DNA from: Escherichia phage AV119
Sequence record: OR352949.1
Length of the DNA: 64,000 nt
Direction: 5' to 3' (one strand)
Part shown: positions 5,604-46,134 of the stretch, piece by piece
Numbering within the stretch: position 1 is the stretch's first letter
Layout of the letters: each line of letters begins with the position of its first letter
The notes under the pieces: generated by a model
Database searches by the model: none
What the model was told of the DNA's origin: nothing
The model's input: the letters and a program-made list of their open reading frames with translations, nothing else
Translations under genes and position numbers: made by a program

Positions 5604-6695
<1,092 letters not shown>

Positions 6696-8127: not shown

Positions 8128-9715
<1,588 letters not shown>

Positions 9716-26776: not shown

Positions 26777-26781
26777 ATTGA

Positions 26782-27495: not shown

Positions 27496-27503
27496 GAGGA
27501 CTT

Positions 27504-30500: not shown

Positions 30501-30818
30501 AAGAACCTAGTTAAATTTGAAAATGCTTCTGAGAAGCTTTCAAAAATTAATGGTTACACTTATATGCAGAAGCGAGGCCTAGATGAAGAAGGTAATCAAA
30601 AATGGGAACCTAATGCCGGTTTAATTGCCCAAGAAGTTCAAGCTATTTTACCTGAATTAGTTGAAGGCGATCAGGATAGTGAAGCTTTACTTCGTTTGAA
30701 CTATAACGGTGTAATTGGTTTAAATACAGCTGCAATCAATGAGCATACTGCAGAAATTGCAGAACTTAAGTCAGAGATTGAAGAGCTTAAAAAATTAGTT
30801 AAATCATTGTTAAAATAA
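27504..30818 (+). CDS. 37: gp37 long tail fibre distal subunit with C-terminal intramolecular-chaperone-like domain
   Basis: 1104 aa; C-terminal SDIRVKKNL...coiled-coil tail resembles self-cleaving chaperone domains of fibre/spike proteins. Confidence 0.9.
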   Translation: MATLKQIQFKRSKTAGARPAASVLAEGELAINLKDRVLFTKDDQGNIIDLGFAKGGNIDGNVIHTGNYNQTGDYTLNGVFTQTGNFNLTGIARVTRDIIAAGQIMTEGGELITKSSGTAHVSFFDNNSRERGIIYAPANDGLTTQVLNIRVQDYAAGSESIYAFSGSGLFTSPEVSAWKSISSPQILTNKVITNNKSTGDYDIYSMADNVPLSESTTAINHLRVMRNAVGSGIFHEVKDNDGITWYAGDGLDTYLWSFTWSGGIKSSHSISIGLTPGNKDYSILGPSSIALGDNDTGFKWHQDGYYFSVNNGTKTFLFSPSETTSLRKFVAGYSTNGTDLTTPPTENYALATVVTYHDNNAFGDGQTLLGYYQGGNYHHYFRGKGTTNINTHGGLLVTPGNIDVIGGSVNIDGRNNASTALFKGNTTGSSSVDNMTISVWGNTFTNPSEGNRKNVMEISDATSWMSYIQRLTTGEVEMNVNGSFESSGVTAGNRGVHTTGEISSGAVNALRIWNADYGAIFRRSEGSLHIIPTAYGEGKHGDIGPLRPFSMALDTGKVTIPDLQSSYNTFAANGYIKFVGHGAGAGGYDIQYAQAAPIFQEIDDDAVSKYYPIVKQKFLNGKSVWSLGTEINSGTFVIHHLKEDGSQGHTSRFNQDGTVNFPDNVQVGGGEATIARNGNIFSDIWKSFTSAGDTTNIRDAIATRVAKEGDTMTGKLIIRRDSDAINLAAPSTTDASYLLSTGAGENLWYIGKGGADNTVSFYNYKTSGAVQINSIGEIALIPQGAATFNFNRDRLHINGTQWTAHQAGDWGNQWRQEAPIFVDFGSVGNDCYYPIIKGKSVITNEGYVSGVDFGMRRITNNWAQGIIRVGNQENGSDPQAIFEFHHNGNMYVPDMVKAGVRISAGGGDPVWTGACVVIGDNDTGLVHGGDGRINMVANGTHIASWGTMYQSHPGLWDSNGAFWTEVGKAIISHGHLVQANDSYSTYVRDVYVRSDIRVKKNLVKFENASEKLSKINGYTYMQKRGLDEEGNQKWEPNAGLIAQEVQAILPELVEGDQDSEALLRLNYNGVIGLNTAAINEHTAEIAELKSEIEELKKLVKSLLK

Positions 30819-30848
30819 TAAGAGGGGCTTCGGCCCTTGGAGGTTTAT

Positions 30849-31640
30849 ATGGCAGTTGAAGGACCGTGGGTAGGATGGTCTGCGAGGGTACAAACTGGAG
30901 ACCCTTGGATGGGTGGTGCCGCACAGAGATTGAGAATGGGAATTCCGTTTTGGATGAGTAATATGATAGGTCGATCTGTTGAAGTAATTCACACGCTTGG
31001 AGCAGACCATAACTTCAATGGTCAATGGTTCCGAGATAGATGTTTTGAGGCAGGTAATGCACCTATAGTGTTTAATATTACAGGTGATTTAGTATCATAT
31101 TCTAAAGATGTTCCTTTATTCTTCATGTACGGAGATACACCAAATGAATATGTTCAGTTAAATATTATTGGCGCTCATATGTGGGGTAGAGGTGGACAAG
31201 GTGGATGGACTCATTCCGGTGGAGATGGTAATGGACAACAAGGCGGGCATTGTATTCAAAACGACATTGGTGGACGATTAAGAATTAACAATGGTGGAGT
31301 AATCTGTGGTGGCGGAGGCGGTGGTGGCGGCATTGCTTACCGTGTTCACTCAGGGGCAAACTGGCAAGATATTGGTGGTGGCGGCGGAAGACCATTTGGC
31401 CCAGGTGGTGGCGGTGGTTACTCAGGTGGCGCAGCTTCATACGTCGCCCCAGGAGGTGGTTACCAATACGGAAATGCTCACTCTGGCCAGGGCGGCGATG
31501 CCGGAGGAAATGGACAAAATGCCTGGTCTGATGGTGGTAAAGTTCTAAAGGTTGGTGCAGGAGGAGCAGCAGGTTATGCTGTCATAGGATCTGCTCCAAC
31601 TTGGCAAAATGTTGGAGTAATATATGGTCCAAGAGTATAA
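30849..31640 (+). CDS. 38: gp38 tail fibre adhesin (T2 type, glycine-rich motifs)
   Basis: 263 aa from MAVEG (RBS GGAGG 5 nt upstream); several poly-Gly runs GGGGGGGG; size unlike the 183-aa T4 gp38 chaperone. Confidence 0.85.
31300..31440 (+). repeat. GGY/GGC glycine-codon repeat tracts inside gene 38
   Basis: ggtggcggaggcggtggtggcggc and related runs. Confidence 0.6.
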
Positions 31641-31671
31641 TTTTGAATAAATACCCCTAAAAGGAGGGTCT

Positions 31672-32328
31672 ATGGCAGCACCTAGAATATCATTTTCGCC
31701 CTCTGATATTCTATTTGGTGTTCTAGATCGCTTGTTCAAAGATAACGCTACCGGGAAAGTTCTTGCTTCCCGGGTAGCTGTCGTAATTCTTTTGTTTATG
31801 ATGGCGATTGTTTGGTATAGGGGAGATAGTTTCTTTGAGTACTATAAGCAATCAAAGTATGAAACATACAGTGAAATTATTGAAAAGGAAAGAAATGCAC
31901 GCTTTGAATCTGTCGCCCTGGAACAACTCCAGATAGTTCATATATCATCTGAGGCAGACTTTAGTGCGGTGTATTCTTTCCGCCCTAAAAACTTAAACTA
32001 TTTTGTTGATATTATAGCATATGAAGGAAAATTACCTTCAACAATAAGCGAAAAATCACTTGGAGGATATCCTGTTGATAAAACTATGGATGAATATACA
32101 GTTCATTTAAATGGACGTCATTATTATTCTGACTCAAAATTTGCTTTTTTACCAACTAAAAAGCCTACTCCCGAAATAAATTACATGTACAGTTGTCCAT
32201 ATTTCAATTTGGATAATATCTATGCTGGAACAATAACCATGTACTGGTATAGAAATGATCATATAAGTAATGACCGCCTTGAATCAATATGTTCTCAGGC
32301 GGCCAGAATATTAGGAAGGGCTAAATAA
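31672..32328 (+). CDS. t: holin T
   Basis: 218 aa, single N-terminal TMD, matches T4 holin T. Confidence 0.92.
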   Translation: MAAPRISFSPSDILFGVLDRLFKDNATGKVLASRVAVVILLFMMAIVWYRGDSFFEYYKQSKYETYSEIIEKERNARFESVALEQLQIVHISSEADFSAVYSFRPKNLNYFVDIIAYEGKLPSTISEKSLGGYPVDKTMDEYTVHLNGRHYYSDSKFAFLPTKKPTPEINYMYSCPYFNLDNIYAGTITMYWYRNDHISNDRLESICSQAARILGRAK

Positions 32329-32601
32329 TTATTTGTTTGTATACATCTCTAGATATCGATATACACCCTCAAAACCCTCGTTGAATTCGTCGATGAGGGT
32401 TTTCTTATCTTCTTGGGTTAATTCAGAAACAATTTTACGGAATGAATTCTGATTTAACTTTCTACCTTCATGCGTTACTCCAATCTCATTCAGAAATGCA
32501 ATAAAATTAGCACGATTCTCAACAATATCTTCTCTGGAAAATTTAATCAAAATAGACGCAACAGTAATAATTTCACGAACTGTATCAATGTTTTTATTCA
32601 T
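32329..32601 (-). CDS. asiA: AsiA anti-sigma70 factor
   Basis: 90 aa, matches T4 AsiA. Confidence 0.92.
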   Translation of the reverse strand: MNKNIDTVREIITVASILIKFSREDIVENRANFIAFLNEIGVTHEGRKLNQNSFRKIVSELTQEDKKTLIDEFNEGFEGVYRYLEMYTNK

Positions 32602-32630
32602 TAACTATACCACTCAATTAGTTGACTTTG

Positions 32631-32662
32631 TTATAATATCATCAGACACTTGATTTGTAAAC
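32631..32662 (-). promoter_or_regulatory. early-type promoter upstream of asiA
   Basis: minus strand GTTTAC-N16-GATATTATAA. Confidence 0.45.
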
Positions 32663-32762
32663 TGGTCTGTGTTATTTTCTTCAAAAATTTTTTCTACGAA
32701 TTCCTTGAACGACTCGCGTTCCTGAGCTACATTATGCTCGATTACCATTTCAAGATTATGAC

Positions 32763-33041
32763 TCATTCGAAATAATCTTCAATTTCGTAATCATGGACAT
32801 AAATCATTATAGTTTTTAATACATCATCAATACTTTTTCCTGGAGCTGGAATTACGTAAAAATATCCTGCTTTTGAGAGGTCTTTATAAGTTCCAACCAA
32901 GAAATCATTATTCTCGAGATGTAATTCTTCAACTAATTCATTAACAATTGAATGGTATAAATTTGGTAGAAACTTATATAGCTTTTCTAGAATATCAATT
33001 TTGATTGTATATTGAACCACAGATTGAGAATCAATAATCAT
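32763..33041 (-). CDS. arn: Arn anti-restriction nuclease (McrBC inhibitor)
   Basis: 92 aa, acidic; matches T4 Arn length and position. Confidence 0.85.
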   Translation of the reverse strand: MIIDSQSVVQYTIKIDILEKLYKFLPNLYHSIVNELVEELHLENNDFLVGTYKDLSKAGYFYVIPAPGKSIDDVLKTIMIYVHDYEIEDYFE

Positions 33042-33124
33042 AGACCTTCCCCTTATGTTTCTGTTTGCGATTAGATTCTTTAAACGCTTTCTTCTTATCT
33101 TTATGAACAGAAGCTTTATTAAAA

Positions 33125-33343
33125 TTATGCTTTGCGACTAAATTGTTCATAGTGCTGAATTACCTCTCTCAAACATTTGCATGTGAATGAAAACTTTTTA
33201 GCTACACCACATTCAAATATATGTTCTCTTAAATCGCGTGTATCCGTATATCCCATCTCAACAATAAAATGTCGTATTAGATTTTTATCTTTATCATTGA
33301 GAGAATTAAAATAATCGGATTTTGAATTAATTTCCCTGGCCAA
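33125..33343 (-). CDS. hypothetical protein (72 aa), arn.1-like
   Basis: co-oriented ORF. Confidence 0.5.
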   Translation of the reverse strand: MAREINSKSDYFNSLNDKDKNLIRHFIVEMGYTDTRDLREHIFECGVAKKFSFTCKCLREVIQHYEQFSRKA

Positions 33344-33623
33344 ATTGAATCACCTTCAGTTGACGTTTTAGTTCTTTTATCATTTCTTCATTCATCGCAA
33401 TATAAAGATCGCGTAAAGCGGGTTTTAACATTCCATTTACTGGAGAACTAAATGGACATACATAATCTTTTCCTACAAGCTTTTTAGTAAATTCCATATC
33501 ACAGAACTTAAATCCCGGCTCATTGGTATAAATTCCCCAATTAGTTGACATCATTTTATTGGCATATTCTAGTGCCTGGATTTGATTCATAATTCCATCA
33601 ATTTGAAACTTTTTAATATTCAT
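33327..33623 (-). CDS. hypothetical protein (98 aa), arn.2-like
   Basis: co-oriented ORF. Confidence 0.5.
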   Translation of the reverse strand: MNIKKFQIDGIMNQIQALEYANKMMSTNWGIYTNEPGFKFCDMEFTKKLVGKDYVCPFSSPVNGMLKPALRDLYIAMNEEMIKELKRQLKVIQFGQGN

Positions 33624-34084
33624 TAGTAAAGGTCCTCAGAGTAAAGTTCTTTTTCACTACCACCACGTTCAATACGTACTTGTCCAGCGTAAGTTGCAAT
33701 AATCATTGCTTCTTCACGTGTCCAATAATTACTGTATTGGTCAATAAACCCTTGGTCATCATCACAAACTTGTTGAGTAACTAATTGAGGTTTAACTACA
33801 TCTAAAACTTCTGCCATATCTTTAGAATAATGACGAGCACCTGGAATAATAAGAGTTCGTCCATCTTTTAATTTAAAACGGTTGGCTGCACAGACAATTC
33901 GTCGTTGATACTTTTGGTTTTCATCCCAATACGCAGTCTGCCAACAGATTTCAGGAACTTCTTTCAGAATATCTTCTTCTGTGCATTTATAACCATGCGC
34001 TTTAAATTTTTCAGCAAGACTTTCTGGAGTTTCACGAGATAAAGGAACATTCAGCATTTTTAAACGATTGATAAATGGGTTCAT
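33623..34084 (-). CDS. hypothetical protein (153 aa), arn.3-like
   Basis: co-oriented ORF. Confidence 0.55.
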
Positions 34085-34410
34085 TTAAACCATCCTTTAA
34101 TACGTTGCCACAAAGTTTTCTGCTGAGCTTTGTTAACACCAATTGAACGAATAACCGGTTGAGATTCCTGGAATTCTTTATAATCGGCAAGGTAAATTTC
34201 GTAAGCTGCATCCGTAAATGAACTTATCGCTGCCATAAAATTATTGCGAATACCTACTGGAGCATCTTTACTTTCACGAATAATCATGTATTTACCAGTC
34301 TTAATCTTTACGATAGTTCCAAGATAAGCTCCATGGTACCAGATGTCCCAACCCTCTTGAGTAGGTTCTACACAACGACGAAGTTCATTGACAATTTCTA
34401 ACTTGTTCAT
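34081..34410 (-). CDS. hypothetical protein (109 aa), arn.4-like
   Basis: co-oriented ORF. Confidence 0.55.
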
Positions 34411-34420
34411 TATTTATTCC

Positions 34421-35056
34421 TCACAGTTCAGATGCTACAGTGATTACAGCTTCAATGTTTTCTGCCGAGCGTTTAATGTCAAGATACACATTACCGTTTT
34501 TAGCGATTTTACATGACATTCCGATATCAGTAAATTTCTGAATATGATGTTCCATCATTTTGTATCCAAAAATTCGCATATTTCCATTATTGTTAATTTC
34601 AAAATTACGAATTCCGTGAGTGCGTTTTTCTAAAATGGCAAGATAATTACTACGATAAGTTTCAACCTTTTTAAGAACAAATCCATTTTCATCTAAAAGT
34701 TTTAACATGAGGTCTTTATCTTCTTCCATATCAGAAGTAATCTCACGAGCTTTACGAGTTGCTCGTTTTTTCAGTAGTTCCGGAGCATTTTCCTGCGCGT
34801 ATAAAGTTGCTGCGTTTGAAATAATATCTTGAGCTTCACCTGTAATGATTAATCCATCACCAGATTTCTCCACCAGGCCTTTTTTAATCAATACCCCAAT
34901 ATTACTATTAACTACTGCGTTACCTAAATCTGGATGCACCTCACGAACTTCTGCGGCTGTAATGAAATCTTTCTTAGCAATAGTAATTAAAATCGCAGCA
35001 GTTTTTTCATTCAGAACATCGTTAGAAGCTTTGATGATGTAAGTCACTTTAGACAT
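34421..35056 (-). CDS. motA: MotA middle-transcription activator
   Basis: 211 aa, matches T4 MotA. Confidence 0.92.
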   Translation of the reverse strand: MSKVTYIIKASNDVLNEKTAAILITIAKKDFITAAEVREVHPDLGNAVVNSNIGVLIKKGLVEKSGDGLIITGEAQDIISNAATLYAQENAPELLKKRATRKAREITSDMEEDKDLMLKLLDENGFVLKKVETYRSNYLAILEKRTHGIRNFEINNNGNMRIFGYKMMEHHIQKFTDIGMSCKIAKNGNVYLDIKRSAENIEAVITVASEL

Positions 35057-35160
35057 TTTAATCTCCGTTTCAGTTCATTTATTTGATAGGTCTATAGTAT
35101 CATGTTTAAAGCAGAAGTAAACACTTTTTGCACTCTTTTTCAAGAGCTCTAATAAAGTAC

Positions 35161-35388
35161 TTACTTAATGTTCAGATTACGAACTTCGATTTCGTCTTCA
35201 TGGGCAAAATCAAACTGTTTGAATTCTGTGTCACCTTTAAATTTAAAAATCATTGTGAAGAAAGTCAGAACACCAGGTTTTTCTTCACGAACTCCACAGA
35301 TATCATATTCAATACCATCTACAACCAGTTTGTTAGCAGTCAGAGCATTTTTAGCTTTAACGATTTCGTTTTCGATTTTAAATTTCAT
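35161..35388 (-). CDS. hypothetical protein (75 aa), motA.1-like
   Basis: co-oriented ORF downstream of promoter 35445..35467. Confidence 0.55.
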   Translation of the reverse strand: MKFKIENEIVKAKNALTANKLVVDGIEYDICGVREEKPGVLTFFTMIFKFKGDTEFKQFDFAHEDEIEVRNLNIK

Positions 35389-35444
35389 TTTTTGTATCTC
35401 CGGGTTGTTTGTTTCAGTTCATTTATTTGATAGTTGTATAGTAC

Positions 35445-35467
35445 CACAGTATGCTTTGGTTGTAAAC
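35445..35467 (-). promoter_or_regulatory. early-type promoter (GTTTAC-N17-GGTACTATAC)
   Basis: near-identical to promoter at 18403..18435. Confidence 0.45.
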
Positions 35468-35492
35468 CGTTTTGTGAAAAAATTTTTGAAAT

Positions 35493-35518
35493 AAAAAAGG
35501 GAGAGCCGAGGCTCTCCC
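35493..35518 (-). terminator. rho-independent terminator (gggagagcc-gag-ggctctccc + U-tract)
   Basis: 9-bp stem preceded by A6 on plus strand. Confidence 0.55.
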
Positions 35519-35523
35519 TAAAA

Positions 35524-35673
35524 TTACTGCATGACTGTGATAACTGTCATGATAACACGTTGAATTCCGAACGCAAGAAGACCTCCTGCTACGGCAGGAA
35601 CAACACCTAAACCCGCCAGTAAAATGCCACCAGATACTAATGCAGCGCTTGTGATACCAATGAATGGACTCAT
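35524..35673 (-). CDS. small hydrophobic membrane protein (49 aa), translationally coupled to gene 52
   Basis: ATG overlaps gene 52 stop (ATGA); Gly/Ala-rich TM helix; not in ORF track. Confidence 0.45.
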   Translation of the reverse strand: MSPFIGITSAALVSGGILLAGLGVVPAVAGGLLAFGIQRVIMTVITVMQ

Positions 35674-36998
35674 TTGATTTCCTCTAAATCTTTGGTGTAT
35701 TCTGTAACTACATCAGTAGTTTTCCAATATTCGTTTTCTTCTTTTTTGGCTTTAGCTTCTTCAGCAAGTTTCTTTGCTTCGTCGGAAGTCATATGAAAAA
35801 TGTTCATTCCAACTAGTTTATCAACATAAGAAGAATACACATCAATTTTAGAAAGTTCTTCGGTCAGTTCTTTGCGAGTTTTACCTTGTACAACAATTTC
35901 ACCTGAAATTACTTTCTTAATGAAATGTGCCTTGGCAAAAGCTAAACGAAATGCTGATTCAGTTTCTTTGATTTTGTTATCAATTCGTTTTTGGACATAA
36001 GTTTTACGAACTTCAACGAAGTCTTTGATTAAATCAACTACATTATCGTAAACTTGCAGCTTTCCTTTCTCATTAATGACGGTAATATTCTGGGAACGAC
36101 GCTCAATCAACCCGAAGTCTTTCATAATTTTTGCATGGCGTTCTTCTTCATTATCGCTCAAAGAGTATTCTTTTCGGAATTTAACTTTGAAGCCAAAGCC
36201 ATGCTCACCACAAGCATCATCCCATGTAATGAAGCCTTTATCTTCAAGCGGGTCTAAGATTTTACTCACATAAGTTTCACGATCATACTTATATGGAATC
36301 TCAGTGATATGCATTTGAGTTCGTGAAGTAAACTTATATGTTCCACGAATTTCATATTGCCCATCAATTTCAACGACTTCACCACGAAATTCTGGGAATT
36401 CTACCTTCGGTTTAGTTACTTTCTTTCCTTGAAGAGCTTGCAGTACAGCTTTCTTGACAGAAGAAACACTATGAGGAAGAATGTAAGTTGCATAACCAGT
36501 TGCAATACCGGAAACGCCATTAAGAAGAACAGTAGGAATAATAGGCAAATAGAAAGCAGGCGGAATGTGTTCTTTATCTTGATGTACTGGAGCATATTCA
36601 GTATCTTTATATACGTTATAGAAATTTTTACTTACACGAGCAAAAATATAACGACTTGCTGCTGCCTTTTGGACAGTACGAGAACCAAAGTTTCCTTGAC
36701 CGTCTAACAGAGGAAAGTTATTATTCCAAGTGTTAGCCATCAAAGCACCTGCGTCTTGCGCAGAGTTTTCACCATGATGATATCCAAGGTCAGCTACACC
36801 GCCTGCGATAGAAGCGAGTTTGTGAAACTTATCTTTATTTCCTCGTGCCAAATCAAGAGCTCGAGCAATAACAAATCGTTGAACTGGCTTAAATCCGTCA
36901 ATCATATTTGGAATGGCACGATTTTCAACCGTGTACATAGCATAAGCCAATGCTTCATTATCAATGATACTTTTTAAATCACGATTATTCAGTTGCAT
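35670..36998 (-). CDS. 52: DNA topoisomerase II medium subunit (GyrA-like)
   Basis: 442 aa, same length as T4 gp52. Confidence 0.92.
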   Translation of the reverse strand: MQLNNRDLKSIIDNEALAYAMYTVENRAIPNMIDGFKPVQRFVIARALDLARGNKDKFHKLASIAGGVADLGYHHGENSAQDAGALMANTWNNNFPLLDGQGNFGSRTVQKAAASRYIFARVSKNFYNVYKDTEYAPVHQDKEHIPPAFYLPIIPTVLLNGVSGIATGYATYILPHSVSSVKKAVLQALQGKKVTKPKVEFPEFRGEVVEIDGQYEIRGTYKFTSRTQMHITEIPYKYDRETYVSKILDPLEDKGFITWDDACGEHGFGFKVKFRKEYSLSDNEEERHAKIMKDFGLIERRSQNITVINEKGKLQVYDNVVDLIKDFVEVRKTYVQKRIDNKIKETESAFRLAFAKAHFIKKVISGEIVVQGKTRKELTEELSKIDVYSSYVDKLVGMNIFHMTSDEAKKLAEEAKAKKEENEYWKTTDVVTEYTKDLEEIK

Positions 36999-37002
36999 AA
37001 AT

Positions 37003-37143
37003 TTACCATACTAGTGAATGTAGTGCCATAATAACATCAGAAATGAAAAGCACGACTTGAATTAATCCGAACATTATTCCGTAATATAATGCTATCAATA
37101 AAATAGCAAGGGCTAATGAATAGCCCAAGATTTTCTTAATCAT
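37003..37143 (-). CDS. small hydrophobic protein (46 aa), 52.1-like
   Basis: ATG overlaps ac stop (ATGATTAA); hydrophobic; not in ORF track. Confidence 0.4.
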   Translation of the reverse strand: MIKKILGYSLALAILLIALYYGIMFGLIQVVLFISDVIMALHSLVW

Positions 37144-37294
37144 TAGTAGATAACAACACAAATGTTAAATATGCACACATACCCTGAGCTAAAGCTTGCG
37201 AAAACACACTGCTGGCATCAATACAGATAGTTAAAACACATGCTACTATCCAACAAATAAATGAAATAACTCCTAATAATTTTGCGATATTCAT
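37136..37294 (-). CDS. ac: Ac-like small membrane protein (52 aa)
   Basis: size and position between stp and 52 match T4 ac; hydrophobic. Confidence 0.5.
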   Translation of the reverse strand: MNIAKLLGVISFICWIVACVLTICIDASSVFSQALAQGMCAYLTFVLLSTND

Positions 37295-37301
37295 ATTTTC
37301 C

Positions 37302-37382
37302 TCACTGGCGTCCGAAGACGCCTTTAGTTTTAAGATTATTACGATAGAACTGCATCACGTGTTCGTTGTGGAAATTACTCAT
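37302..37382 (-). CDS. stp: Stp peptide (26 aa), activator of host PrrC anticodon nuclease
   Basis: translates to [26 protein letters not shown]; ATG overlaps ndd stop (TAATG). Confidence 0.7.
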
Positions 37383-37840
37383 TAATATGCCTGCAAAACG
37401 AATTTAAAATTATCAGCCAACATACGGTTCATTTCTTCAAGTGTTTGATACTCAGAATGATGATTACGAGTAAACGCTAAAGCTAACTGTCCTTTTCCAA
37501 ATCCCGTCGTCAGAGGTTTCATCTTAGAAGCAGGCAGATAAAATACTGTGTATACCATATTGTTATTTGCAATAGTACGTGCAAGCTGAGACCGACGTTG
37601 ACGAATATGACTTAGAACTGCACTGAATCCTTGCTTAGAACGCTGATTACCTACATAAAATCGTGCAGACACACATGGATTACTAAATGGACGACCATCT
37701 AATTTACTTACTAAAAAATAAAATCCAGGTTTAGATAAAATATCTTTATGCGGAGTTCCCAAAAACCACTCACCACCCTTGATTGTACCAATAACAGTAG
37801 CGCCTGCATTATTCAGATCAGTAACAGTCATGTATTTCAT
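37382..37840 (-). CDS. ndd: Ndd nucleoid disruption protein
   Basis: 151 aa from MKYMTV (ORF track extends to 37888); matches T4 Ndd. Confidence 0.85.
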
Positions 37841-37900
37841 ATTAATTTCCTCTAAATTATTTTCTACTCCAAGGCCGCATGAATACACGCGGCCATTAAA

Positions 37901-38116
37901 TTAATCGTCGCAGTCGACGCTCAATTCCCAAAACTCTTCTACGGTATAAGTTTCAGTATCATTTTCAATACAGAAACGTTCATTACTGTTATTTGCTAAA
38001 GTAGCATTAACTGTCATTTTTTCGCTAGTGCTCTTAAGAGGTGAAATACGAATTAACTGATCACCGTTATCTAAACAAAAAATTTCACCAACTTTTACAT
38101 CTTTAAAACTTTTCAT
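37901..38116 (-). CDS. hypothetical protein (71 aa), ndd.x-like
   Basis: co-oriented ORF. Confidence 0.5.
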   Translation of the reverse strand: MKSFKDVKVGEIFCLDNGDQLIRISPLKSTSEKMTVNATLANNSNERFCIENDTETYTVEEFWELSVDCDD

Positions 38117-38231
38117 AATTCACCTCAAGGAGTATAAAATCCAAACGCAGTTGTTGACCATCCCATCCAATATGGAAAATTTGCACCAATGTAAAACATA
38201 AGAATATAAAACCAACCGCTCAGCAAATTCA

Positions 38232-38429
38232 TCATTTTACACCATTCCAAATTGTTTCAACCACGGATTTTAAACCATTTTGATGAATATCCATTCCGAC
38301 TACTGCCATCAAATAGATTCCAACTACAACTGAACCTAAGGCAAAAATCAGCATGAAAATGAATAAAGCCGGAAAAATATTATCGAAAAACCATTCAATA
38401 AATGTAAAAGCACTGCGTTTACGCTTCAT
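38232..38429 (-). CDS. small membrane protein (65 aa from MKRKRS)
   Basis: RBS GAGGAAAAT before ATG 38429; TM segment. Confidence 0.45.
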   Translation of the reverse strand: MKRKRSAFTFIEWFFDNIFPALFIFMLIFALGSVVVGIYLMAVVGMDIHQNGLKSVVETIWNGVK

Positions 38430-38436
38430 ATTTTCC

Positions 38437-38550
38437 TCACATAAATCCAAAGTAAACGTTTAATACATCAATCATTAAAACGATTGGGAATATACTCAAA
38501 ACTATTAGTATTATAACTACATTCCATATAGCTTTAACAATCTTTTTCAT
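38437..38550 (-). CDS. small membrane protein (37 aa from MKKIVK)
   Basis: RBS GGAGG before ATG 38550, immediately downstream of promoter 38575..38608. Confidence 0.45.
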   Translation of the reverse strand: MKKIVKAIWNVVIILIVLSIFPIVLMIDVLNVYFGFM

Positions 38551-38574
38551 TTTCTGTTCCTCCGTAGTTGATAG

Positions 38575-38608
38575 GGTAATAGTACCACGGAAGAACAGTC
38601 TTGTAAAC
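38575..38608 (-). promoter_or_regulatory. early-type promoter
   Basis: minus strand GTTTAC (38608..38603) and GGTACTATTACC. Confidence 0.45.
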
Positions 38609-38793
38609 AACTTTTTTAAAAATATTCGTAATAAATGTGAATACCAATCACTACTGCCGAAACTTGTGCAACCCACCATGCACACGCAATAAGTACAGAA
38701 TTCAAAATTTTCATAATAACCTCATCACAAAAGTAAATGTTAAACAAATTACTGGAATACTAATTAACCAAACAAAACACCAACATAATGAAC

Positions 38794-39057
38794 TCATAGT
38801 TCAATCTCAACGATTTCCAAGTGTTTTTGTTTTATTGCCTTTTTAACACAATCATGGACTAAATATGACCATGAATCATTATATTCTCCATTAACTAATC
38901 GTTGGAGATCTTCACGTGATGATAAGTAAGGTTGATCTGATTCCCATTTTGATAAAAATACTGCAGTAAAAATATCTCCTTCATCTGTAGTTGAAGTCGT
39001 AAATGCAATAAATTCACCGGTAATTTTATGTTTAGCGTAATAAAATTTAAATTTCAT
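38794..39057 (-). CDS. hypothetical protein (87 aa from MKFKFYY), ndd.x-like
   Basis: RBS GGAGG before ATG 39057; promoter 39083..39114 upstream. Confidence 0.5.
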   Translation of the reverse strand: MKFKFYYAKHKITGEFIAFTTSTTDEGDIFTAVFLSKWESDQPYLSSREDLQRLVNGEYNDSWSYLVHDCVKKAIKQKHLEIVEIEL

Positions 39058-39082
39058 TTTTACTCCTCCGTAGCTGATAGTT

Positions 39083-39114
39083 GTATAGTACCACGGTCCT
39101 TGTGGTATGTAAAC
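39083..39114 (-). promoter_or_regulatory. early-type promoter (GTTTAC-N16-GGTACTATAC)
   Basis: between denB stop and next ORF. Confidence 0.45.
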
Positions 39115-39131
39115 TGTTTTGTGAAAATTTT

Positions 39132-39689
39132 TTAAATGGAAAGATACCATCCATTGTAGTTGCTTTTTCTTACAACCTTACGAAGGTCTTCTCTGTCACC
39201 GATGAACTTCGGAGTGTACTGGATGACACCTGGATGAATTTCTTTAGTGTTGAATATAATTATACAGTCAGCGACTTGATGATTTAGAATGGGCCCTAGA
39301 TTTATTCCAGAACCGTATGGATACTCTCCGCTGCATCCTGTTGTTACAGAAATCCAACGTGAGCCAGTTTGATGTGTCTTAACTTCTACACGAAGCCCAC
39401 AGTATTTTGGATGTGCTAAAACATCCCACGCGTATGTATATGGATCATCGACATCTTCTTGACCTTTATTAACATACCCGCTTAGCCAATCTGCTACAAA
39501 AAACTCTGCGTATACAGCAATACGACATCTTTCAATAACTTCTGCTTTATCCTGGTTCGGGTTTTGTTTTAAAGAGTATCTTGCAGTATCAGCAATTTTG
39601 ACCTTCATTTCACTAGTCAAGTCACTGTTCGATAGGGTAAATGTCGGAATCTGAAATAGTCTCTGTAAACCCGGATTCGTTTTCTGCAT
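39132..39689 (-). CDS. denB: endonuclease IV (dC-specific)
   Basis: 185 aa, matches T4 DenB. Confidence 0.88.
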   Translation of the reverse strand: MQKTNPGLQRLFQIPTFTLSNSDLTSEMKVKIADTARYSLKQNPNQDKAEVIERCRIAVYAEFFVADWLSGYVNKGQEDVDDPYTYAWDVLAHPKYCGLRVEVKTHQTGSRWISVTTGCSGEYPYGSGINLGPILNHQVADCIIIFNTKEIHPGVIQYTPKFIGDREDLRKVVRKSNYNGWYLSI

Positions 39690-39951
39690 TTAGACTTTCC
39701 TTTTTACCACTGAGATAAGCGTTATATACTTTAAGAGTGCCGTAATAAATTCGGTCATTTTCATCTAAAGACTCGCGGTCAAGTTCATCGAGCTCCTTTT
39801 TATCCATGACTATAACATCATTACAGTAAAGAAACCCAAGTTTTTCGTGACCAAACTCAAATTTATTACAGTACACAATATTAGCGTGATGATTTCCGTG
39901 CAGTTTAATCTCTTTTATGTCGGAATCACCGATATTCATACAATAAATCAT
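39622..39951 (-). CDS. hypothetical acidic protein (109 aa), overlaps denB start
   Basis: RBS AAGGAAAAA before ATG 39951. Confidence 0.5.
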   Translation of the reverse strand: MIYCMNIGDSDIKEIKLHGNHHANIVYCNKFEFGHEKLGFLYCNDVIVMDKKELDELDRESLDENDRIYYGTLKVYNAYLSGKKESLNAENESGFTETISDSDIYPIEQ

Positions 39952-39966
39952 AATTTTTCCTTAAAA

Positions 39967-39990
39967 CAAAAGGGCCGAAGCCCTTTTGTT
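39967..39990 (-). terminator. hairpin (gggc-cgaa-gccc) flanked by A-run and T-run, potentially bidirectional
   Basis: aaaagggccgaagcccttttgtttt. Confidence 0.45.
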
Positions 39991-40185
39991 TTACTTGAAT
40001 TGTGCAATTCTTTTCTCTAGACATTCAGCATAAGATTTCATTGAGATGAACTGTGAAAGTAGCAGTTCTTGCTCAACTACACTAACTGTTAGAAACTTTG
40101 CGCTTTCTAAAAATTTACTCAGTGCATTAATTTTGAGCATTAATTGATCGTATTCTTCTTTTACTCGTGCTTGATAACCTAACAT
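39991..40185 (-). CDS. hypothetical protein (64 aa)
   Basis: co-oriented ORF between rIIB and denB. Confidence 0.45.
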   Translation of the reverse strand: MLGYQARVKEEYDQLMLKINALSKFLESAKFLTVSVVEQELLLSQFISMKSYAECLEKRIAQFK

Positions 40186-40213
40186 AATTTTCCTTAGTTA
40201 AGGGCCGAAGCCC

Positions 40214-41152
40214 TTATTTAAATTGTTCAGTAACGTCTTCAACTACTTCGTATTGGCAGGTACGCATTTTAGCGTCGTTGTAATCAATCGGAATTGATAC
40301 CACATCGCGAGGATGCACTTTAACTTTTACGACTCGGCTGGTTGAACTGCCAAAGTGACGAATATAAGATTTAGAACACACATGCAGACCACGAGAACAA
40401 GTTTGTGTATCATCGTCATTCACACGAGTACGTGGCATTTTAACTACTTTACCCGGACTGTTATCAAAGGTATTTGAGTGACAGTCAAAGTAATTGCTGC
40501 GAACTACTTTCCAAGCATAGAAGTAGCCATCTTCTGTAATTTCAATATCGTTTGCTACCAAGAAATCAAAGAGTCGAGATACCGCTTTTTGGCTTGGGTT
40601 TTCCAGCAGATTTTCCAAGAACGGAAAATAAAATTCAAAGTTTTCGCCTTTTTCCATCGAGTCAAGAATACGATCAACCAAACCAGACCGCAATTCAATA
40701 TTTTGATAGAACAAGCTTCCACCTTCAATTCGAACATCGCCGGAAATATATTTTTCAACAGCGCGACGAACATTAATTTTTTGTGCTGCTTCTTCCAGCT
40801 TATCCGCTACAAGCAGATTAAGAATTTCCTGGAAGTTTGAATGAGTATTAGGAGTTGCGTTATAAGTTACACCGTCAACAGTAATTGAAATGAATTTTTT
40901 AGATGCATTCCAAATAATGTCAGATTTAGCAACTGGAGCAATAACTGCATCGCTATTAACTTTAACTGTAATATCACCACTAATAGTAACTTTAGGGCGT
41001 TTAGCTTCTTCGGCATTTTTCAAAACACGACGGATTGTATCAACCGATACACCTTGCCAATCAGCCAATTCCTGTTGGGTGTAATTACCACTTGAATACA
41101 GTTTAACAATTTCAGCTTGTTCGTTTTTGGTCAGGCATTTAATATTGTACAT
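40214..41152 (-). CDS. rIIB: rIIB
   Basis: 312 aa, matches T4 rIIB. Confidence 0.92.
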   Translation of the reverse strand: MYNIKCLTKNEQAEIVKLYSSGNYTQQELADWQGVSVDTIRRVLKNAEEAKRPKVTISGDITVKVNSDAVIAPVAKSDIIWNASKKFISITVDGVTYNATPNTHSNFQEILNLLVADKLEEAAQKINVRRAVEKYISGDVRIEGGSLFYQNIELRSGLVDRILDSMEKGENFEFYFPFLENLLENPSQKAVSRLFDFLVANDIEITEDGYFYAWKVVRSNYFDCHSNTFDNSPGKVVKMPRTRVNDDDTQTCSRGLHVCSKSYIRHFGSSTSRVVKVKVHPRDVVSIPIDYNDAKMRTCQYEVVEDVTEQFK

Positions 41153-41163
41153 AATTTTCCTTA

Positions 41164-43341
41164 TTAGGCCGCAAGGGCCTTCATAGTTTTAGCGATTTGA
41201 GAAACTTCATCATCACTTAAAGAGTTGCGATAACCGATGAAGTCGGAAACAATGCGGAATTTCTTGGTAAACTCAGCAACCATTTTATCACTGTTTTTTG
41301 AAGCATTATTTGATAATACATCAAAAAGATTAGTTACTGTCCAGATGTCATGACCGATGGTATCTTTTCCACCATTAAAATATACACCGCGCAATGAACT
41401 AACTATATTAGCGAGTCGTGTATATTCTTCAGAAACTTCATCTGTACTGAAGTACTTCATCATAAAATCTAACTCAGGATACTTGATAATTTTATCAATA
41501 TATCGTTGAGCTGAACTTGAATAACCTACGTACTTATCATAATCTACATCATCAAAAGCATCTACATATAAATCACGCAGAGTTTCAAAAATACATTGGC
41601 ACTGACCGAGTTCTTTTACCTTTTTCTGTAAAAGCGGACGAATAACATAAAATTCATTAATGCCAATAAGATTAGCCATACGAATCAAAATATTCATAGA
41701 TGGATGACAAAGAGATGTAGTACCATCCATAGAGAAAATATCAGAACGATGCATATACGCTACATACCCAGTAATTTCATCTGCTTCTGATGTGAGCGTA
41801 AATAATTCCTCTTTTTCCCAGCGCCCGTCTTTAATTTCAAACTTAAATGCTGTAGCAGCTTTAGGACGAGGAGCTTTACTTTTAACTACCTTTGGAATAT
41901 AGCTTTTAACTAAAGCTTCAATTTCTGACAAATAATGAATGTTAACTTCATCACTTTCAAACATCGCCATAATATCAGGAAGTAAATCAATCTGCGATTC
42001 TACTTCTGGATTAATAAACAGAAGACGCTCATTATGATGAATATTCAAAGTGTTATTAAATTCACTATCATCTAACGCATGTGCTAATCCACGAACAATA
42101 TTAACACGATTTTTAATATTATCAATAACGATATTAATTTTTGTTGTATTAATACCAAACAGACGATAACTTGATGCAACGGCTGAAGTTTCATGACTTT
42201 GCTTAATGCGTTTCAGTCGAGGGTCAAGATTTACTTCATACACAACTCCTGCATTACATAACTTATTGTCAGGTTCAAACATGCTCTGCATCTTTTTATA
42301 TGACAGATTTTTAGTCGTGAATTTGACTGAATTACTAATCATATAATCTCGAGCAGAATATCCCATCTTCATCAATTCACGATATGTGTGACGAGGAGAT
42401 GTAGATTCTTTAAATCGTTTTACATCTTCATTAAATGCTTTCTCACTGAGTTCTTTAACTCGTTCAATAATATTTTTACGAGTACGATCATCTAGTGAAA
42501 GAGCTTCGCGTGATGGAGCAATATCAAGCGAACCCATTGGAAACTTAATGTAATTCACTTCATTACGAATGCTTAGCCAGTTACGGTCTTTAATAACACC
42601 ATCGATAGGATAAACAATACCGCCATAGATAGCATATAATCCACCACGATCAGGCCAGTATCTTTCTGGATTTATGCCGTAATAATCATCAAAATCCGGA
42701 AAATAATCAATTTCGCGGTCAAGACCATTAATGATAGCCAAATCTTTGAATGGTCGCATGATATAAGAAACTTCATAAGCAAAGTTTCTAAAGTCTTTTT
42801 CTTCAACTGGAACTACGATTTCAATACCAGTTTTATCATCTGGACCCATTTCTTTTACGAATGTAGGTTTAATCTGTGGACCATCACCATCCATGTAAGC
42901 TACATAACCACGAATTTCACCTTTATGATACGAAGTAATACTAAATGTATCAGTATAACTAAACGGAGATTTAGAACCTAAACCAAACCCGCCAATAAAG
43001 TCATTAGATTCAGCCTTAGATGAACTGAAGTATGAATTATATAACCCAGGAGAATTATCATCACCCTGAATATCAAAATCACTCATACCCGGACCAAAAT
43101 CTCGACAAACAAATCGCGGATCTAATCGTCCTGGAACTTGTATGATAAATTTTTCAGGATTTCCATTAAGTGCATGGGCATCAATCATATTAGTAATTAA
43201 TTCACGGACTACTGCACGAATCTTGTTTGTATACAAATCAGATGACAGAATTTTAAATACTTTAGGAGATGCTGTGATGCTAAATGCTTTTGATTTAGAA
43301 CCATTGCCAAGAATTGTTTCTTTTTCAGTGGTGATAATCAT
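41164..43341 (-). CDS. rIIA: rIIA
   Basis: 725 aa, matches T4 rIIA. Confidence 0.92.
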
Positions 43342-43351
43342 AATTTCCTCA

Positions 43352-43555
43352 TTAATTCATATTACGCTTAATAACTTCAGCAACTTCTAGTAATTCATCT
43401 TTAGTTGCAGTGTCGGATTGAATTTTATCTCTAATATCTTTAAAGCGGTTTTTAAATTCTTCGGCTTCTCCCATATCGAAAAAGCGTTGAATGATTCTAT
43501 ATTCTCGATGAACTGCTTTATCAAAAAGTTCTAAATTTACTTTATATGATTTCAT
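43352..43555 (-). CDS. hypothetical protein (67 aa), rIIA.1-like
   Basis: co-oriented ORF downstream of promoter 43581..43610. Confidence 0.55.
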
Positions 43556-43580
43556 TTCAATATCCTCATTTGCCCAATTA

Positions 43581-43610
43581 ATTATACCACATCCTTGTGG
43601 TAAAGTAAAC
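43581..43610 (-). promoter_or_regulatory. early-type promoter (GTTTAC-N16-GGTATAAT)
   Basis: near-consensus -10 with extended TG. Confidence 0.5.
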
Positions 43611-45427
43611 TACTGGCTCATCCATTCTTTACGAAGGTCAGCATTATCTCCCATGAGCATTTCAAAAAGCTCTTTCCAGTTCTCAGGAAGTTTAACAACA
43701 TCATATACTGGGTTTTGAATCATCTCACGATATTCAGATTTTTCCAAAGAGCCAAGTCCTTTAATATAACGGATGCTATGTTTAGGTAGAGCATCTTTGG
43801 CACTCTCATATTCAGCGACTGTATAAAACCATTCTTGTTTTTTACCAATCTGAGCGATGATTACAGGAGTTTTGACAAAACGAATTCGTCCTTGCTCAAA
43901 CAATTCTGGCCAATTACTAAAAAATCCAAGCAGAGAAGGATAAATGCTTCCTAGACCATCATGGTCAGCATCAGTCATAATAGCAATATTATGATAATTC
44001 AAGTTTTCAGCTTTTTCACCGAGAACTAATCCAGTGATTGCGCAAATATCAAATAGTTCTTTGTTTTTAAGCATATCTGCATAAGACATACCCCAACTGT
44101 TGAGAACTTTACCGCGCAATGGATAACCACCGTGAAGTTCTTTATCACGAACATCAATAAGATATCCGATAGCCGAATCACCCTCAGTCAAGAAAAGAGT
44201 AGTGTCAGCATCTTTACCACAAAGATTCGCTTTGATATGTTTATGAACCTTAGCTTTAGAAGCCTTTTTAGCTGCTTTAGTTTCTGCTGCTTTTTCTGCC
44301 GCCAATTTACGAGCCAAAGCAGCTTCAATAATCGGCATTAGAATTGCTTCATTATTTAGAATAGCACGTGAAATCTTTTTAGCATCAAGCTGAATATGAC
44401 TACGAATTTCGCCAAATGGAGAAGTCAAACGCTCTTTAGTTTGAGAATCAAATCGCATGTTTTTCATATCACGAACAAACATAACGATAGTCAAACATTC
44501 TTTAACACGCGCTTTAGTTACATCAATTTTGAACTTACGTTTGATTTGTGGAATAAGGTCTTCACAAATATCATCCATAACACAGTCAATGTGATGGCCA
44601 CCATTCTTAGTGTGAATGTTATTGACGTATGTTAATTGACGAAAACCATCCGGTGAACGACCAACCGCAATAGAACAATTTTCTTGTTCTTGAACAATAG
44701 CATGCTCATCATATTGGCGTGCATATTTCTTAAAATTGCCCTGAACCTTTTTACCATTAAAGGTAAATTGAATATCAGGATAAACAACAGCAAGTGTCTG
44801 GAGACGATCTAATGTAATGTCAAGATAAACTTGAGATAATTCATTAGTTTCAAATGACATAAAATCTGGAATGAAAGTAACACGAGTTCCTTTCCATTTT
44901 CCAGGAATAGTTTCCCATGATTTATTTTCCATGCCATTTGAACAACGAACTACAATATTATTTTGACCATCGCCAGTTTCACCGACAAACATCACAGAAA
45001 AAATGTTAGTTAAACTAGAACCAACACCATTCATACCACCGGTGACGCGTTCTTTATCATCACCAAAGTTACCACCTGCTTTTGGAATAGTCCACGCAGC
45101 AACTGGACCAGGAATTTCTTCACCGGTAGGTGTTTTGACCATCGCTTGTGGAATACCACGACCGTTATCTTCAACTGTTACTTGATTGTTTTTAATAGTA
45201 ACATTAATTTTATTTGCGAATTTAAACTTAGTACGAATACCTTCATCTACTGAGTTATCGATAATTTCATCAATAAGCTTAACAAGACCAGGTACATACT
45301 GAACACTTTCCCATTTACCAAACAGAAAGCGCTCATGCATTTCATTAGCGGAAGAGCCAATGTACATGCCGCTACGCTTTTTGATATGTTCAATATCGCT
45401 CAGAATTTTAATTTCATTCTTAATCAT
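43610..45427 (-). CDS. 39: DNA topoisomerase II large subunit (GyrB-like ATPase), uninterrupted (39+60 fused)
   Basis: 605/606-aa continuous ORF; GHKL ATPase N-terminus and TOPRIM C-terminus in one frame. Confidence 0.92.
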   Translation of the reverse strand: MIKNEIKILSDIEHIKKRSGMYIGSSANEMHERFLFGKWESVQYVPGLVKLIDEIIDNSVDEGIRTKFKFANKINVTIKNNQVTVEDNGRGIPQAMVKTPTGEEIPGPVAAWTIPKAGGNFGDDKERVTGGMNGVGSSLTNIFSVMFVGETGDGQNNIVVRCSNGMENKSWETIPGKWKGTRVTFIPDFMSFETNELSQVYLDITLDRLQTLAVVYPDIQFTFNGKKVQGNFKKYARQYDEHAIVQEQENCSIAVGRSPDGFRQLTYVNNIHTKNGGHHIDCVMDDICEDLIPQIKRKFKIDVTKARVKECLTIVMFVRDMKNMRFDSQTKERLTSPFGEIRSHIQLDAKKISRAILNNEAILMPIIEAALARKLAAEKAAETKAAKKASKAKVHKHIKANLCGKDADTTLFLTEGDSAIGYLIDVRDKELHGGYPLRGKVLNSWGMSYADMLKNKELFDICAITGLVLGEKAENLNYHNIAIMTDADHDGLGSIYPSLLGFFSNWPELFEQGRIRFVKTPVIIAQIGKKQEWFYTVAEYESAKDALPKHSIRYIKGLGSLEKSEYREMIQNPVYDVVKLPENWKELFEMLMGDNADLRKEWMSQ

Positions 45428-45496
45428 CACTTATCCTCGTTTGGTTTCGGGAATATTATACTCCGGTAATCATAAAGCTAAAGGCCCGAAGGCCTT

Positions 45497-45766
45497 TTAT
45501 TTAAAACGAATAGTCGAATCCTTGAAGAATAGTCCAGAACATACTGTTCCTTCTACTTTCTGCCCAGTAGGTCCAATAGCACGAAATCCAGTATGTTGGA
45601 AATCATTTTCAGAACAACCGAACCAGTTATATCCAGTGATTTCAATATTAGTAAAACCGCTTGAAGACAAAACTTTGGTTGCATTATCAGCATCAGTACA
45701 TCCTACTAAAGACACTGCTAATACTAATGCCGCGATAGAACGATTAATATATTTCATAATTTTCAC
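45497..45766 (-). CDS. putative lipoprotein (89 aa), 39.1-like
   Basis: signal peptide with LVGC lipobox. Confidence 0.55.
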   Translation of the reverse strand: MKIMKYINRSIAALVLAVSLVGCTDADNATKVLSSSGFTNIEITGYNWFGCSENDFQHTGFRAIGPTGQKVEGTVCSGLFFKDSTIRFK

Positions 45767-46134
45767 TTAAATTTAATGGCTTGAAGAAGACTAATAATTC
45801 TCAAGCGACTTCCTTCATCTTTAACTGTAAAAGAAAGAGGGTCACCAGATTTCATAGTGATAGTGCATTCAAAAGCAAAACCTTCGGGAACTTCTTCGAA
45901 GAAGTCAAATTCTTCATCATAAATTAGAACATTACTCTGAAAACTGTGAAGAATTTTTCCGTCATTTCCAGATGCTGTACTAATCATTGTAACATTATTA
46001 CCTTTCATATCTTCAACGATAAATTCGCTTGTAGATATTACAGCATTAATAGAACCATTCCTATAAATAGCAGAAAATAGATATTTCTTTTCTTCACCTT
46101 CGCGAATGCGATATTTCTTACCGATTTTAAACAT
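45763..46134 (-). CDS. hypothetical protein (123 aa), 39.2-like
   Basis: co-oriented ORF. Confidence 0.55.
   Translation of the reverse strand: MFKIGKKYRIREGEEKKYLFSAIYRNGSINAVISTSEFIVEDMKGNNVTMISTASGNDGKILHSFQSNVLIYDEEFDFFEEVPEGFAFECTITMKSGDPLSFTVKDEGSRLRIISLLQAIKFK

Follow-up and report, generated by a model that had tools for sequence, protein, structure and literature searches.

A CUUCGG hairpin within the final stp codons at the stp-ac boundary of a T4-like phage, and its possible role as mRNA punctuation

The DNA analysed here, which we call the window, is a 64-kb stretch of a Tequatrovirus genome that is about 96% identical to T4. Collinearity with T4 begins at about T4 position 128,205 and continues from there onward, with per-segment identities of roughly 88-97% and a value of about 96% at ndd-stp-ac-52.1. 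A megablast search with positions 36950-37900 returned 549 phage records, several of which were 100% identical and nearly all of which were Tequatrovirus. The first-pass annotation had placed four consecutive genes on the minus strand at 37003-37840, which is borne out by the ORF list, the profile searches and the gene order of T4; it had also reported pseT and rnlA elsewhere in the window, and both were recovered by tblastn and Pfam. The genes are as follows.

37382..37840, minus strand: ndd, nucleoid disruption protein, 152 aa (ORF list; Pfam PF06591, 1.6e-94; phrog_1102; T4 collinearity)
37302..37382, minus strand: stp, 26 aa (ORF list; Pfam PF08133, 2e-21; phrog_6763; 100% identity to T4 Stp)
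37136..37294, minus strand: ac, a 52-aa small membrane protein for acridine resistance (ORF list; phrog_2501, 3.7e-25; T4 annotation)
37003..37143, minus strand: 52.1, predicted membrane protein, 46 aa (Pfam DUF7396, 4.8e-22; T4 annotation)
about 5793..6695, minus strand: pseT, polynucleotide kinase/phosphatase (tblastn with T4 PseT, 91% identity over the full length; Pfam HAD_PNKP, 7.5e-61, and AAA_33)
about 8128..9252, minus strand: rnlA, RNA ligase 1 (tblastn with T4 Rnl1, 99% identity over the full length; Pfam T4_Rnl1_C and RNA_lig_T4_1)

The order ndd-stp-ac-52.1 agrees with the T4 annotation, and transcription of the minus strand meets ndd, stp, ac, 52.1 and then gene 52, which starts at 36998. 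The four genes, which would be transcribed leftward within a polycistronic mRNA, are a textbook T4 early or delayed-early cluster and as such already known. Their description as four genes packed by overlaps applies to two of the junctions. The TAA stop of ndd (37384-37382) and the ATG of stp have one base in common (TAATG), and ac overlaps 52.1, whose ATG lies at 37143-37141, by 8 nt (ATGATTAA); both are stop/start overlaps of the type found in coupled genes. It does not apply to stp and ac, where the UGA stop of stp (37304-37302) is followed by a spacer of 7 nt, and a gap of 4 nt likewise separates 52.1 from gene 52.

Stp gives the phage some help with type Ic restriction, yet it becomes a drawback on prr+ hosts because it triggers PrrC; PseT and Rnl1 are the tRNA-repair countermeasures to PrrC, and the conflict among Stp, PrrC, PseT and Rnl1 is textbook T4 biology. 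That Stp activates the PrrC anticodon nuclease, as stated in the first-pass annotation, is established knowledge, and inhibition of EcoprrI is described as well (reviewed in PMC3014915). The peptide encoded here, identical to T4 Stp throughout, has the properties of the family, namely a length of about 26 aa, the 18 conserved N-terminal residues and a PF08133 match that spans residues 1-26. According to a review of T4 post-transcriptional control, Stp function resides in the N-terminal 18 residues, suppressor mutations are concentrated at residues 4-14, loss of the eight C-terminal codons lowers both activities only moderately, and relatives of T4 vary in the C-terminal part (PMC3014915). It is in this permissive C-terminal tail that we find the following structure.

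37307..37322, minus strand: RNA hairpin GGCGUC-UUCG-GACGCC, 6-bp stem with a C(UUCG)G tetraloop (sequence, hairpin scan, fold energy)

The hairpin, which corresponds to T4 positions of about 165,510-165,525, takes up codons 21-25 of stp, which encode GVFGR, together with one base of the Q codon at position 26; there the mRNA reads GGC GUC UUC GGA CGC C. A hairpin with a perfect 6-bp stem inside stp had been proposed, and it exists, but its position was given as 37309-37324, which is 2 nt off. Nor is it simply a GC hairpin, since the stem consists of five G-C pairs and one U-A pair, all of them Watson-Crick. The loop had been quoted as CGAA, which is its form on the plus strand; the genes lie on the minus strand, and the 4-nt loop of the mRNA is UUCG closed by C-G. 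The tetraloop had thus gone unnoticed, and with it the connection to a hairpin class described in 1988. From the end of the hairpin it is 2 nt to the stp stop codon, 3 nt to the ac Shine-Dalgarno sequence and 12 nt to the ac AUG. Because the C-terminal tail of Stp is largely dispensable (PMC3014915), an overlap between the hairpin and the reading frame should be tolerable. A local fold of 40 nt has a nearest-neighbour predicted energy of -11.5 kcal/mol (z = -3.25). By comparison, a 131-nt fold around stp showed no larger structure (z = -0.29), and it is the local hairpin alone that stands out. An Rfam search of 36500-38500 gave no credible family, the sole match being TarB with 20 bits against a threshold of 80 bits (E = 0.92), and the T4 reference records carry no regulatory feature at this site.

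The hairpin is real and not a product of chance. When 100 dinucleotide-preserving shuffles of the window were used as the null, hairpins with a stem of 6 Watson-Crick pairs, a 4-nt loop and at least five G-C pairs were observed 5 times in the whole window against 0.07 expected, and hairpins of the same type with a TTCG/CGAA loop 8 times against 0.2 expected; strong hairpins of these types are about 40-70-fold enriched. In addition, the hexamer CTTCGG occurs 28 times in the window, compared with 12.8 expected. The choice of codons is also non-random. With the 13,875 codons of the window as the reference for codon usage, the usage-weighted probability that the peptide GVFGRQ is encoded with a 6-bp Watson-Crick stem is 5.4e-4, and the native encoding has the lowest energy among 1536 synonymous ones (-11.5 versus a mean of -3.7 kcal/mol). 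The codons concerned are rare in this phage (GGC 15%, GUC 8.5%, UUC 24% and CGC 13%). If G·U pairs are allowed, 8.6% of the usage-weighted encodings of GVFGRQ pair at all six positions.

To see how the hairpin behaves in other phages, stp loci were collected from GenBank phages, IMG/VR and metagenomes by a degenerate pattern for the stp N-terminus, a query that is blind to the hairpin and that was more productive than an IMG/VR search by Ndd, which found only 5 close loci. The hairpin is conserved: pairing is 100% in the 10 distinct variants of the region, which come from Tequatrovirus, Dhakavirus, Gaprivervirus and uncultured or metagenomic sources. Three stem positions vary, and they do so only by way of G·U pairs (GGC becomes GGU, GGA becomes GGG, and U replaces the C at the 3' end). 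Because the loop of Gaprivervirus is UUUG and not UUCG, the special tetraloop is not strictly maintained. No double-sided covariation was seen among the 10 distinct variants, for which a shuffle control was uninformative, and the changes in the stem are consistent with selection without proving it, because every one is a transition, the kind of change that is in any case most frequent at synonymous sites. In 460 phage records the 46-nt block that comprises the hairpin and the initiation region matches at 99% identity or more, an agreement that is weak evidence because most of these phages are very close relatives. In the comparison with Gaprivervirus, 1 of the 16 nt of the hairpin differs, as against about 22% in stp codons 1-20 (P of about 0.1, by a hand count).

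Two comparisons, with Kagunavirus and with Mosigvirus, tell us more. Kagunavirus siphophages carry an unannotated stp homologue in which GVFG is kept, as GGR GUG UUU GGR, without a hairpin, and therefore the peptide does not force the structure. Judging from these sequences, synonymous sites drift where the structure is absent, and the recurrence of a G-hydrophobic-hydrophobic-G motif in hairpin-less Stp homologues suggests that there is some constraint on the peptide too. Together with the rare codons and the minimal energy of the native encoding, the Kagunavirus homologues support the first-pass proposal that the 3' codons of stp double as RNA structure. Mosigvirus phages lack stp, yet where ndd gives way to an ac-like gene they too have a hairpin, of the ordinary intercistronic kind. 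In the Tequatrovirus phages SHFML-11 and LF73P3 the stp tail is recombinant and the hairpin has been lost, with ac still present, and in Gelderlandvirus the boundary has neither stp nor hairpin. The hairpin is thus dispensable, because SHFML-11, LF73P3 and Gelderlandvirus do without it. It might be argued from these lineages that the hairpin has no function at all, and is a by-product of the amino-acid sequence, of local composition and of shared ancestry among close phages; the lack of compensatory covariation, the near-identity of most genomes that supply the database copies and the 8.6% of encodings that pair throughout once G·U is counted all point the same way. This view is very improbable, since it must account for a Watson-Crick stem built from rare codons, for the excess of both G+C-rich and UUCG-looped hairpins over the shuffles, for a position and strand that fit the rest of the CUUCGG class described below, and for a Kagunavirus peptide that has drifted to non-pairing codons. 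We infer that there is selection on the hairpin, which is probably a selected feature.

The stp hairpin does not stand alone. If G·U pairs are counted, the window holds 10 CUUCGG hairpins whose stem has 6 bp or more, and all 10 lie on the locally transcribed strand. Besides the one in stp, they include the following.

2135-2156, 56106-56127 and 26780-26801: terminator-like CUUCGG hairpins with a U-run after the stem
1256-1275, 39962-39993, 40199-40216 and 30823-30838: CUUCGG hairpins between a stop codon and a Shine-Dalgarno sequence with AUG
45480-45497: CUUCGG hairpin that adjoins a stop codon, no Shine-Dalgarno sequence and start being found directly after it
63769-63788: CUUCGG hairpin inside gene 40

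Most of the ten directly follow or overlap the upstream stop codon and precede a Shine-Dalgarno sequence by 0-4 nt, and in the hairpins at 39962 and 40199 the stem includes the stop codon. The arrangement at stp, in which the hairpin is followed by 3 nt, GAGG, 5 nt and AUG, is that of the stop/Shine-Dalgarno group. Eight of the other nine strong hairpins are intercistronic and one lies in gene 40, and the stp hairpin sits at the boundary between stp and ac but within the stp ORF. Its place inside stp sets it apart in degree but not in kind, because a terminating ribosome also covers a hairpin that starts at the stop codon.

The class of C(UUCG)G tetraloops was defined in T4 by Tuerk et al. (1988, PNAS 85:1364), as recounted in PMC4371310 and PMC8948821. 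CUUCGG hairpins are unusually stable to heat, are mostly intergenic and stop reverse transcriptase, and one at the 5' end stabilises gene 32 mRNA (PMC8948821); UUCG is frequent in T4 intergenic stem-loops (PMC1702504). The stp hairpin has the loop and stem of the class, a UUCG loop closed by C-G on the transcribed strand with complementary flanks of 2-8 nt (6 pairs here). It also shares with the T4 hairpins a short G+C-rich stem, a place at a cistron boundary just before a Shine-Dalgarno sequence and membership of an over-represented set. It differs from the typical case, which is found in an untranslated spacer, in that it lies within an ORF, for which the gene 40 hairpin is the only other strong example in the window. 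On sequence grounds, then, the stp hairpin is an ordinary member of the long-known T4 CUUCGG class.

Some database records suggest another role. NC_054920 labels the site "putative transcriptional terminator, -10.30", and other GenBank records flag a terminator too. With its G+C-rich hairpin and its automated label, the site does resemble intrinsic terminators, and a Rho-independent terminator for the sense (minus-strand) transcript has to be considered. However, the mRNA continues after the stem as AGUGAGGAAAAUAUGAAU, without a U-run (the sense-strand 3' flank is AGUGAGGAAAAUAUG), and a terminator scan of the minus strand made no call here, whereas the terminator-like CUUCGG hairpins of the window have tails of UUUUAUUUU, UUUCAUUUU or UUUCUUU. 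Furthermore, ac, 52.1 and gene 52 of the same unit lie directly downstream, and no promoter lies between stp and ac; a promoter scan of stp-ac found none, its only match being a loose MotA box inside 52.1. A sense-strand intrinsic terminator, contradicted as it is by the missing 3' U-run, is most improbable. The terminator label in several GenBank records is not supported by the sequence, and its correction would tidy the record.

On the plus strand the same DNA reads GGCGUC-CGAA-GACGCC followed by UUUAGUUUUA, and here a pattern scan does call a terminator-like site, which could be taken as a terminator of antisense transcription. There are no plus-strand genes nearby, however, and the late-promoter consensus TATAAATA is absent from the plus strand over 26808-46062. 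The U-rich tail corresponds to the stp codons for K-T-K and is lost in Gaprivervirus (AGUUAAUUUC) and in other variants (GGUAAUUUUA), in all of which the stem is kept, and the special tetraloop exists on the minus strand only. Without an upstream plus-strand late promoter and with a U-tail that is not conserved, the antisense terminator is unconvincing, and we hold it to be extremely unlikely.

A role in translation is suggested by what lies immediately downstream.

37292..37304, minus strand: translation initiation region of ac, UGAGGAAAAUAUG, with the stp stop UGA, GAGG at 37303-37300, a 5-nt spacer and AUG at 37294-37292

The UGA that ends stp forms part of the ac Shine-Dalgarno sequence, UGAGG. 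This region is invariant in almost all stp-bearing Tevenvirinae, irrespective of which gene comes next; in the window it occurs exactly twice (the second copy is at 38427-38439), and about 10 times with at most 2 mismatches. It is conceivable that the hairpin, 3 nt 5' of the Shine-Dalgarno sequence, is an initiation or coupling device for ac, which would either block long-range pairing or hinder the free entry of 30S subunits. In the coupling version, ac would be read mainly by ribosomes coming from stp, which would have opened the hairpin on their way and ended translation 7 nt short of the AUG. In support of such a device, the stp stop codon lies within the ac Shine-Dalgarno sequence and 7 nt from the AUG, the succession of hairpin, Shine-Dalgarno sequence and AUG recurs at 1256-1275, 39962-39993, 40199-40216 and 30823-30838 (with the stop codon in the stem at two of them), and the spacing of the three elements is constant in every hairpin-bearing variant. 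However, opening ac from -12 to +3 costs the native sequence 3.3 kcal/mol, against a usage-weighted mean of 3.45 kcal/mol for 768 synonymous recodings, 33% of which are as accessible or better, and in phages that lack the hairpin ac still follows a Shine-Dalgarno sequence of the ordinary kind. We therefore rejected the idea of an insulator that keeps the ac initiation region open, its modelled accessibility being no better than that of the synonymous recodings. The device as a whole strikes us as rather unlikely; a coupling role, with ac translated by ribosomes that have just left stp, is possible.

Another reading concerns recombination rather than RNA. The conserved block can be written GGCGUCUUYGGRCGCY-NN-UGAGGAAAAUAUG. 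Similarity ends at its AUG, after which small hydrophobic ORFs with no fewer than six different N-termini begin (MNIAKLL, MKFVHG, MIILVF, MTSVFS, MQTVFT and MNILQG). In Aplg8-type phages a further paralogue of ac has been inserted at precisely this point, and the recombinant stp tail of SHFML-11 matches the 3' end of this Aplg8-type paralogue. Such a pattern, in which the block is kept while unrelated ORFs follow its AUG, could mark a homology patch for swapping the gene after stp, and it recalls, in reduced form, the PeSL (promoter-early stem-loop) cassettes described in PMC2839356 and PMC4122927. Like these cassettes, the stp block combines a stem-loop, a Shine-Dalgarno sequence and a start codon beside a variable gene slot; unlike them, it has no sigma-70-like early promoter between stem-loop and Shine-Dalgarno sequence, which is the defining part of a PeSL, and leaves only 12 nt between hairpin and AUG. 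Moreover, UGAGGAAAAUAUG is merely a strong and common T4 initiation region, and the conservation of the hairpin could equally reflect a role of the RNA, with recombination being incidental. That the junction is conserved as a homology patch is accordingly quite unlikely in our judgement.

By analogy with known systems, we regard it as the likeliest reading, at about even odds, that the hairpin is a nuclease-resistant punctuation mark in the mRNA, acting as a stability or processing boundary much as the first-pass annotation had suggested. The rare, G+C-rich codons at the end of stp, five and a third in number, fold on the mRNA into a 6-bp hairpin capped by C(UUCG)G, an exceptionally stable tetraloop of a class that T4 sets at cistron boundaries. 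The short stp frame runs through the hairpin instead of stopping before it, so that the sequence carries two kinds of information. The boundary might work in either of two directions. In one version, the initiation region of ac, which is A/U-rich, would be cut, and the hairpin would then stop exonucleases working 3'-to-5', leaving ndd-stp protected. In the other, processing upstream would leave the hairpin close to the 5' end of the ac-52.1-52 segment, which it would shield in the way reported for the leader of T4 gene 32. Our literature search found neither a 3'-end or 5'-end map nor half-life data for T4 transcripts at the stp hairpin.

For the first version, a parallel is offered by the REP hairpins of malE-malF, which are intercistronic barriers to 3' exonucleases in polycistronic mRNA. 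The stp hairpin resembles them as a stem-loop without a U-run between cistrons that could give the segments on its two sides different stability; it differs in being a single small tetraloop hairpin within coding sequence, with a putative function. For the second version, the 5' stem-loop of ompA is one example of a stabilising leader hairpin. The other is the stem-loop of the T4 gene 32 leader, which stabilises its mRNA according to the account of Gorski et al. (1985) and Loayza et al. (1991) given in PMC8948821. As at stp, the T4 message there is polycistronic and processed, and a stable hairpin stands a few nt ahead of where translation starts; the gene 32 mechanism would apply to the stp hairpin if RNase E cuts just 5' of it.

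A bolder reading, which we offer tentatively and think doubtful, is that the hairpin is a selected element with a double coding role, by which the amount or the timing of Stp is adjusted relative to the downstream genes; related to it is the idea that the block of hairpin and Shine-Dalgarno sequence is a recombination joint for cassettes of ac-like membrane proteins. On the dosage reading, the hairpin could define a protected 3' end of the ndd-stp message or make the translation of ac depend on that of stp, and both the work of the peptide and the folding of the RNA would have moulded the GVFGRQ tail. The significance of the finding is small, given that the gene cluster is textbook material and that such hairpins were recognised between T4 cistrons as early as 1988. 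Still, the C-terminal codons of stp offer a clean, small case of synonymous sites fixed by RNA structure, with Kagunavirus as a hairpin-less natural control, and the stp homologues that Kagunavirus seems to carry without annotation may interest those who work on anti-restriction peptides and PrrC-type defences.

A 25-aa homologue of the Stp peptide, ~96% identical to T4 Stp, is present in Kagunavirus siphophages, a group with no relation to T4, which suggests that the anti-type-Ic-restriction peptide has been horizontally transferred. The loci concerned, with L-numbers denoting our collected phage and metagenome loci and coordinates running within each locus, are:

L010 1498-1572, minus strand: stp homologue, Raoultella phage RP180
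L011 about 1498-1572, minus strand: stp homologue, Escherichia phage ZCEC5
L029, L031, L032, L034, L036, L041, L044, L045, L048, L057: further Kagunavirus stp loci

No annotated CDS covers the homologue in the two records fetched (RP180 and ZCEC5), and in RP180 it lies between an endolysin gene on one side and a block of small ORFs on the other. The hairpin of the last stp codons is absent from the Kagunavirus copies.

Variation in stp and its hairpin is also seen among T4-like phages, with the following features:

L019 670-825, minus strand: extra ac paralogue, phage Aplg8
L014, L015: loci with a hairpin-less stp tail, phages SHFML-11 and LF73P3
L016 about 527-601 and 822-896, minus strand: two stp copies, Escherichia phage EcWhh-1 (Dhakavirus)

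In some Tequatroviruses an extra ac paralogue (MKFVHG...GSKNS) sits between stp and ac. The stp tail of SHFML-11, which reads ...GSKNS* and is followed by UGAGGAGAAUAUUAUG, is identical to the 3' end of this paralogue, suggesting that the hairpin was lost through deletion or recombination. The stp frame of LF73P3 and L042 lacks a stop at the GSKNS position and continues across the ac start. EcWhh-1 carries stp twice in the same genome; its downstream copy has CGG where ATG is expected, and may therefore be a pseudogene or use a different start, and the hairpin is nonetheless kept. More distant stp-like ORFs, found in L040 (metagenome JACCDR010039986.1), L043 and L059, have a 12-residue N-terminus in common and differ in their tails, one type being 26 aa long and ending in EQMLSRKE, the other 31 aa long and ending in WKFSE. 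A classical terminator (GCCCGC-ACAT-CGCGGGC-UUUUUU) follows the L040 ORF.

Two relatives lack stp. In Mosigvirus (S143_2), ndd and the ac-like gene are separated by an intercistronic region with a hairpin, AGGCCC...GGGCCU, and a U-run after it; Gelderlandvirus Melville (L063) has no hairpin at this position.

L062 about 840-891, minus strand: intercistronic hairpin region, S143_2

Other CUUCGG hairpins occur in the window. A second strong one within coding sequence, UCCCCCUC-UUCG-GAGGGGGA (8 bp; 63769-63788, minus strand), extends over roughly codons 16-22 of gene 40, whose product matches Pfam Phage_head_chap. Four further sites share a layout in which a stop codon is succeeded by a CUUCGG hairpin and, after 0-4 nt, by a Shine-Dalgarno and an AUG; the stems at 39962 and 40199 include the upstream gene's TAA stop:

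1256-1275, minus strand
39962-39993, minus strand
40199-40216, minus strand
30823-30838, plus strand

Two additional hairpins lie in the ndd-stp-ac-52.1 cluster:

37873-37894, minus strand: GGCCGC-N10-GCGGCC, between ndd.1 and ndd
37110-37126, both strands: GGGCUAUUCAUUAGCCC, inside 52.1

The former is immediately upstream of the ndd initiation region, while the latter was scored terminator-like by the scan because U-rich sequence follows on either strand. A loose MotA-box middle-promoter match (TGCTT-N14-TATTAT; about 37028-37052, minus strand) also falls in 52.1, upstream of gene 52. Finally, the 13-mer UGAGGAAAAUAUG, comprising a Shine-Dalgarno and AUG, has an exact second copy at 38427-38439 (minus strand), some 1.1 kb upstream, where a small ORF resembling ndd.2a begins.
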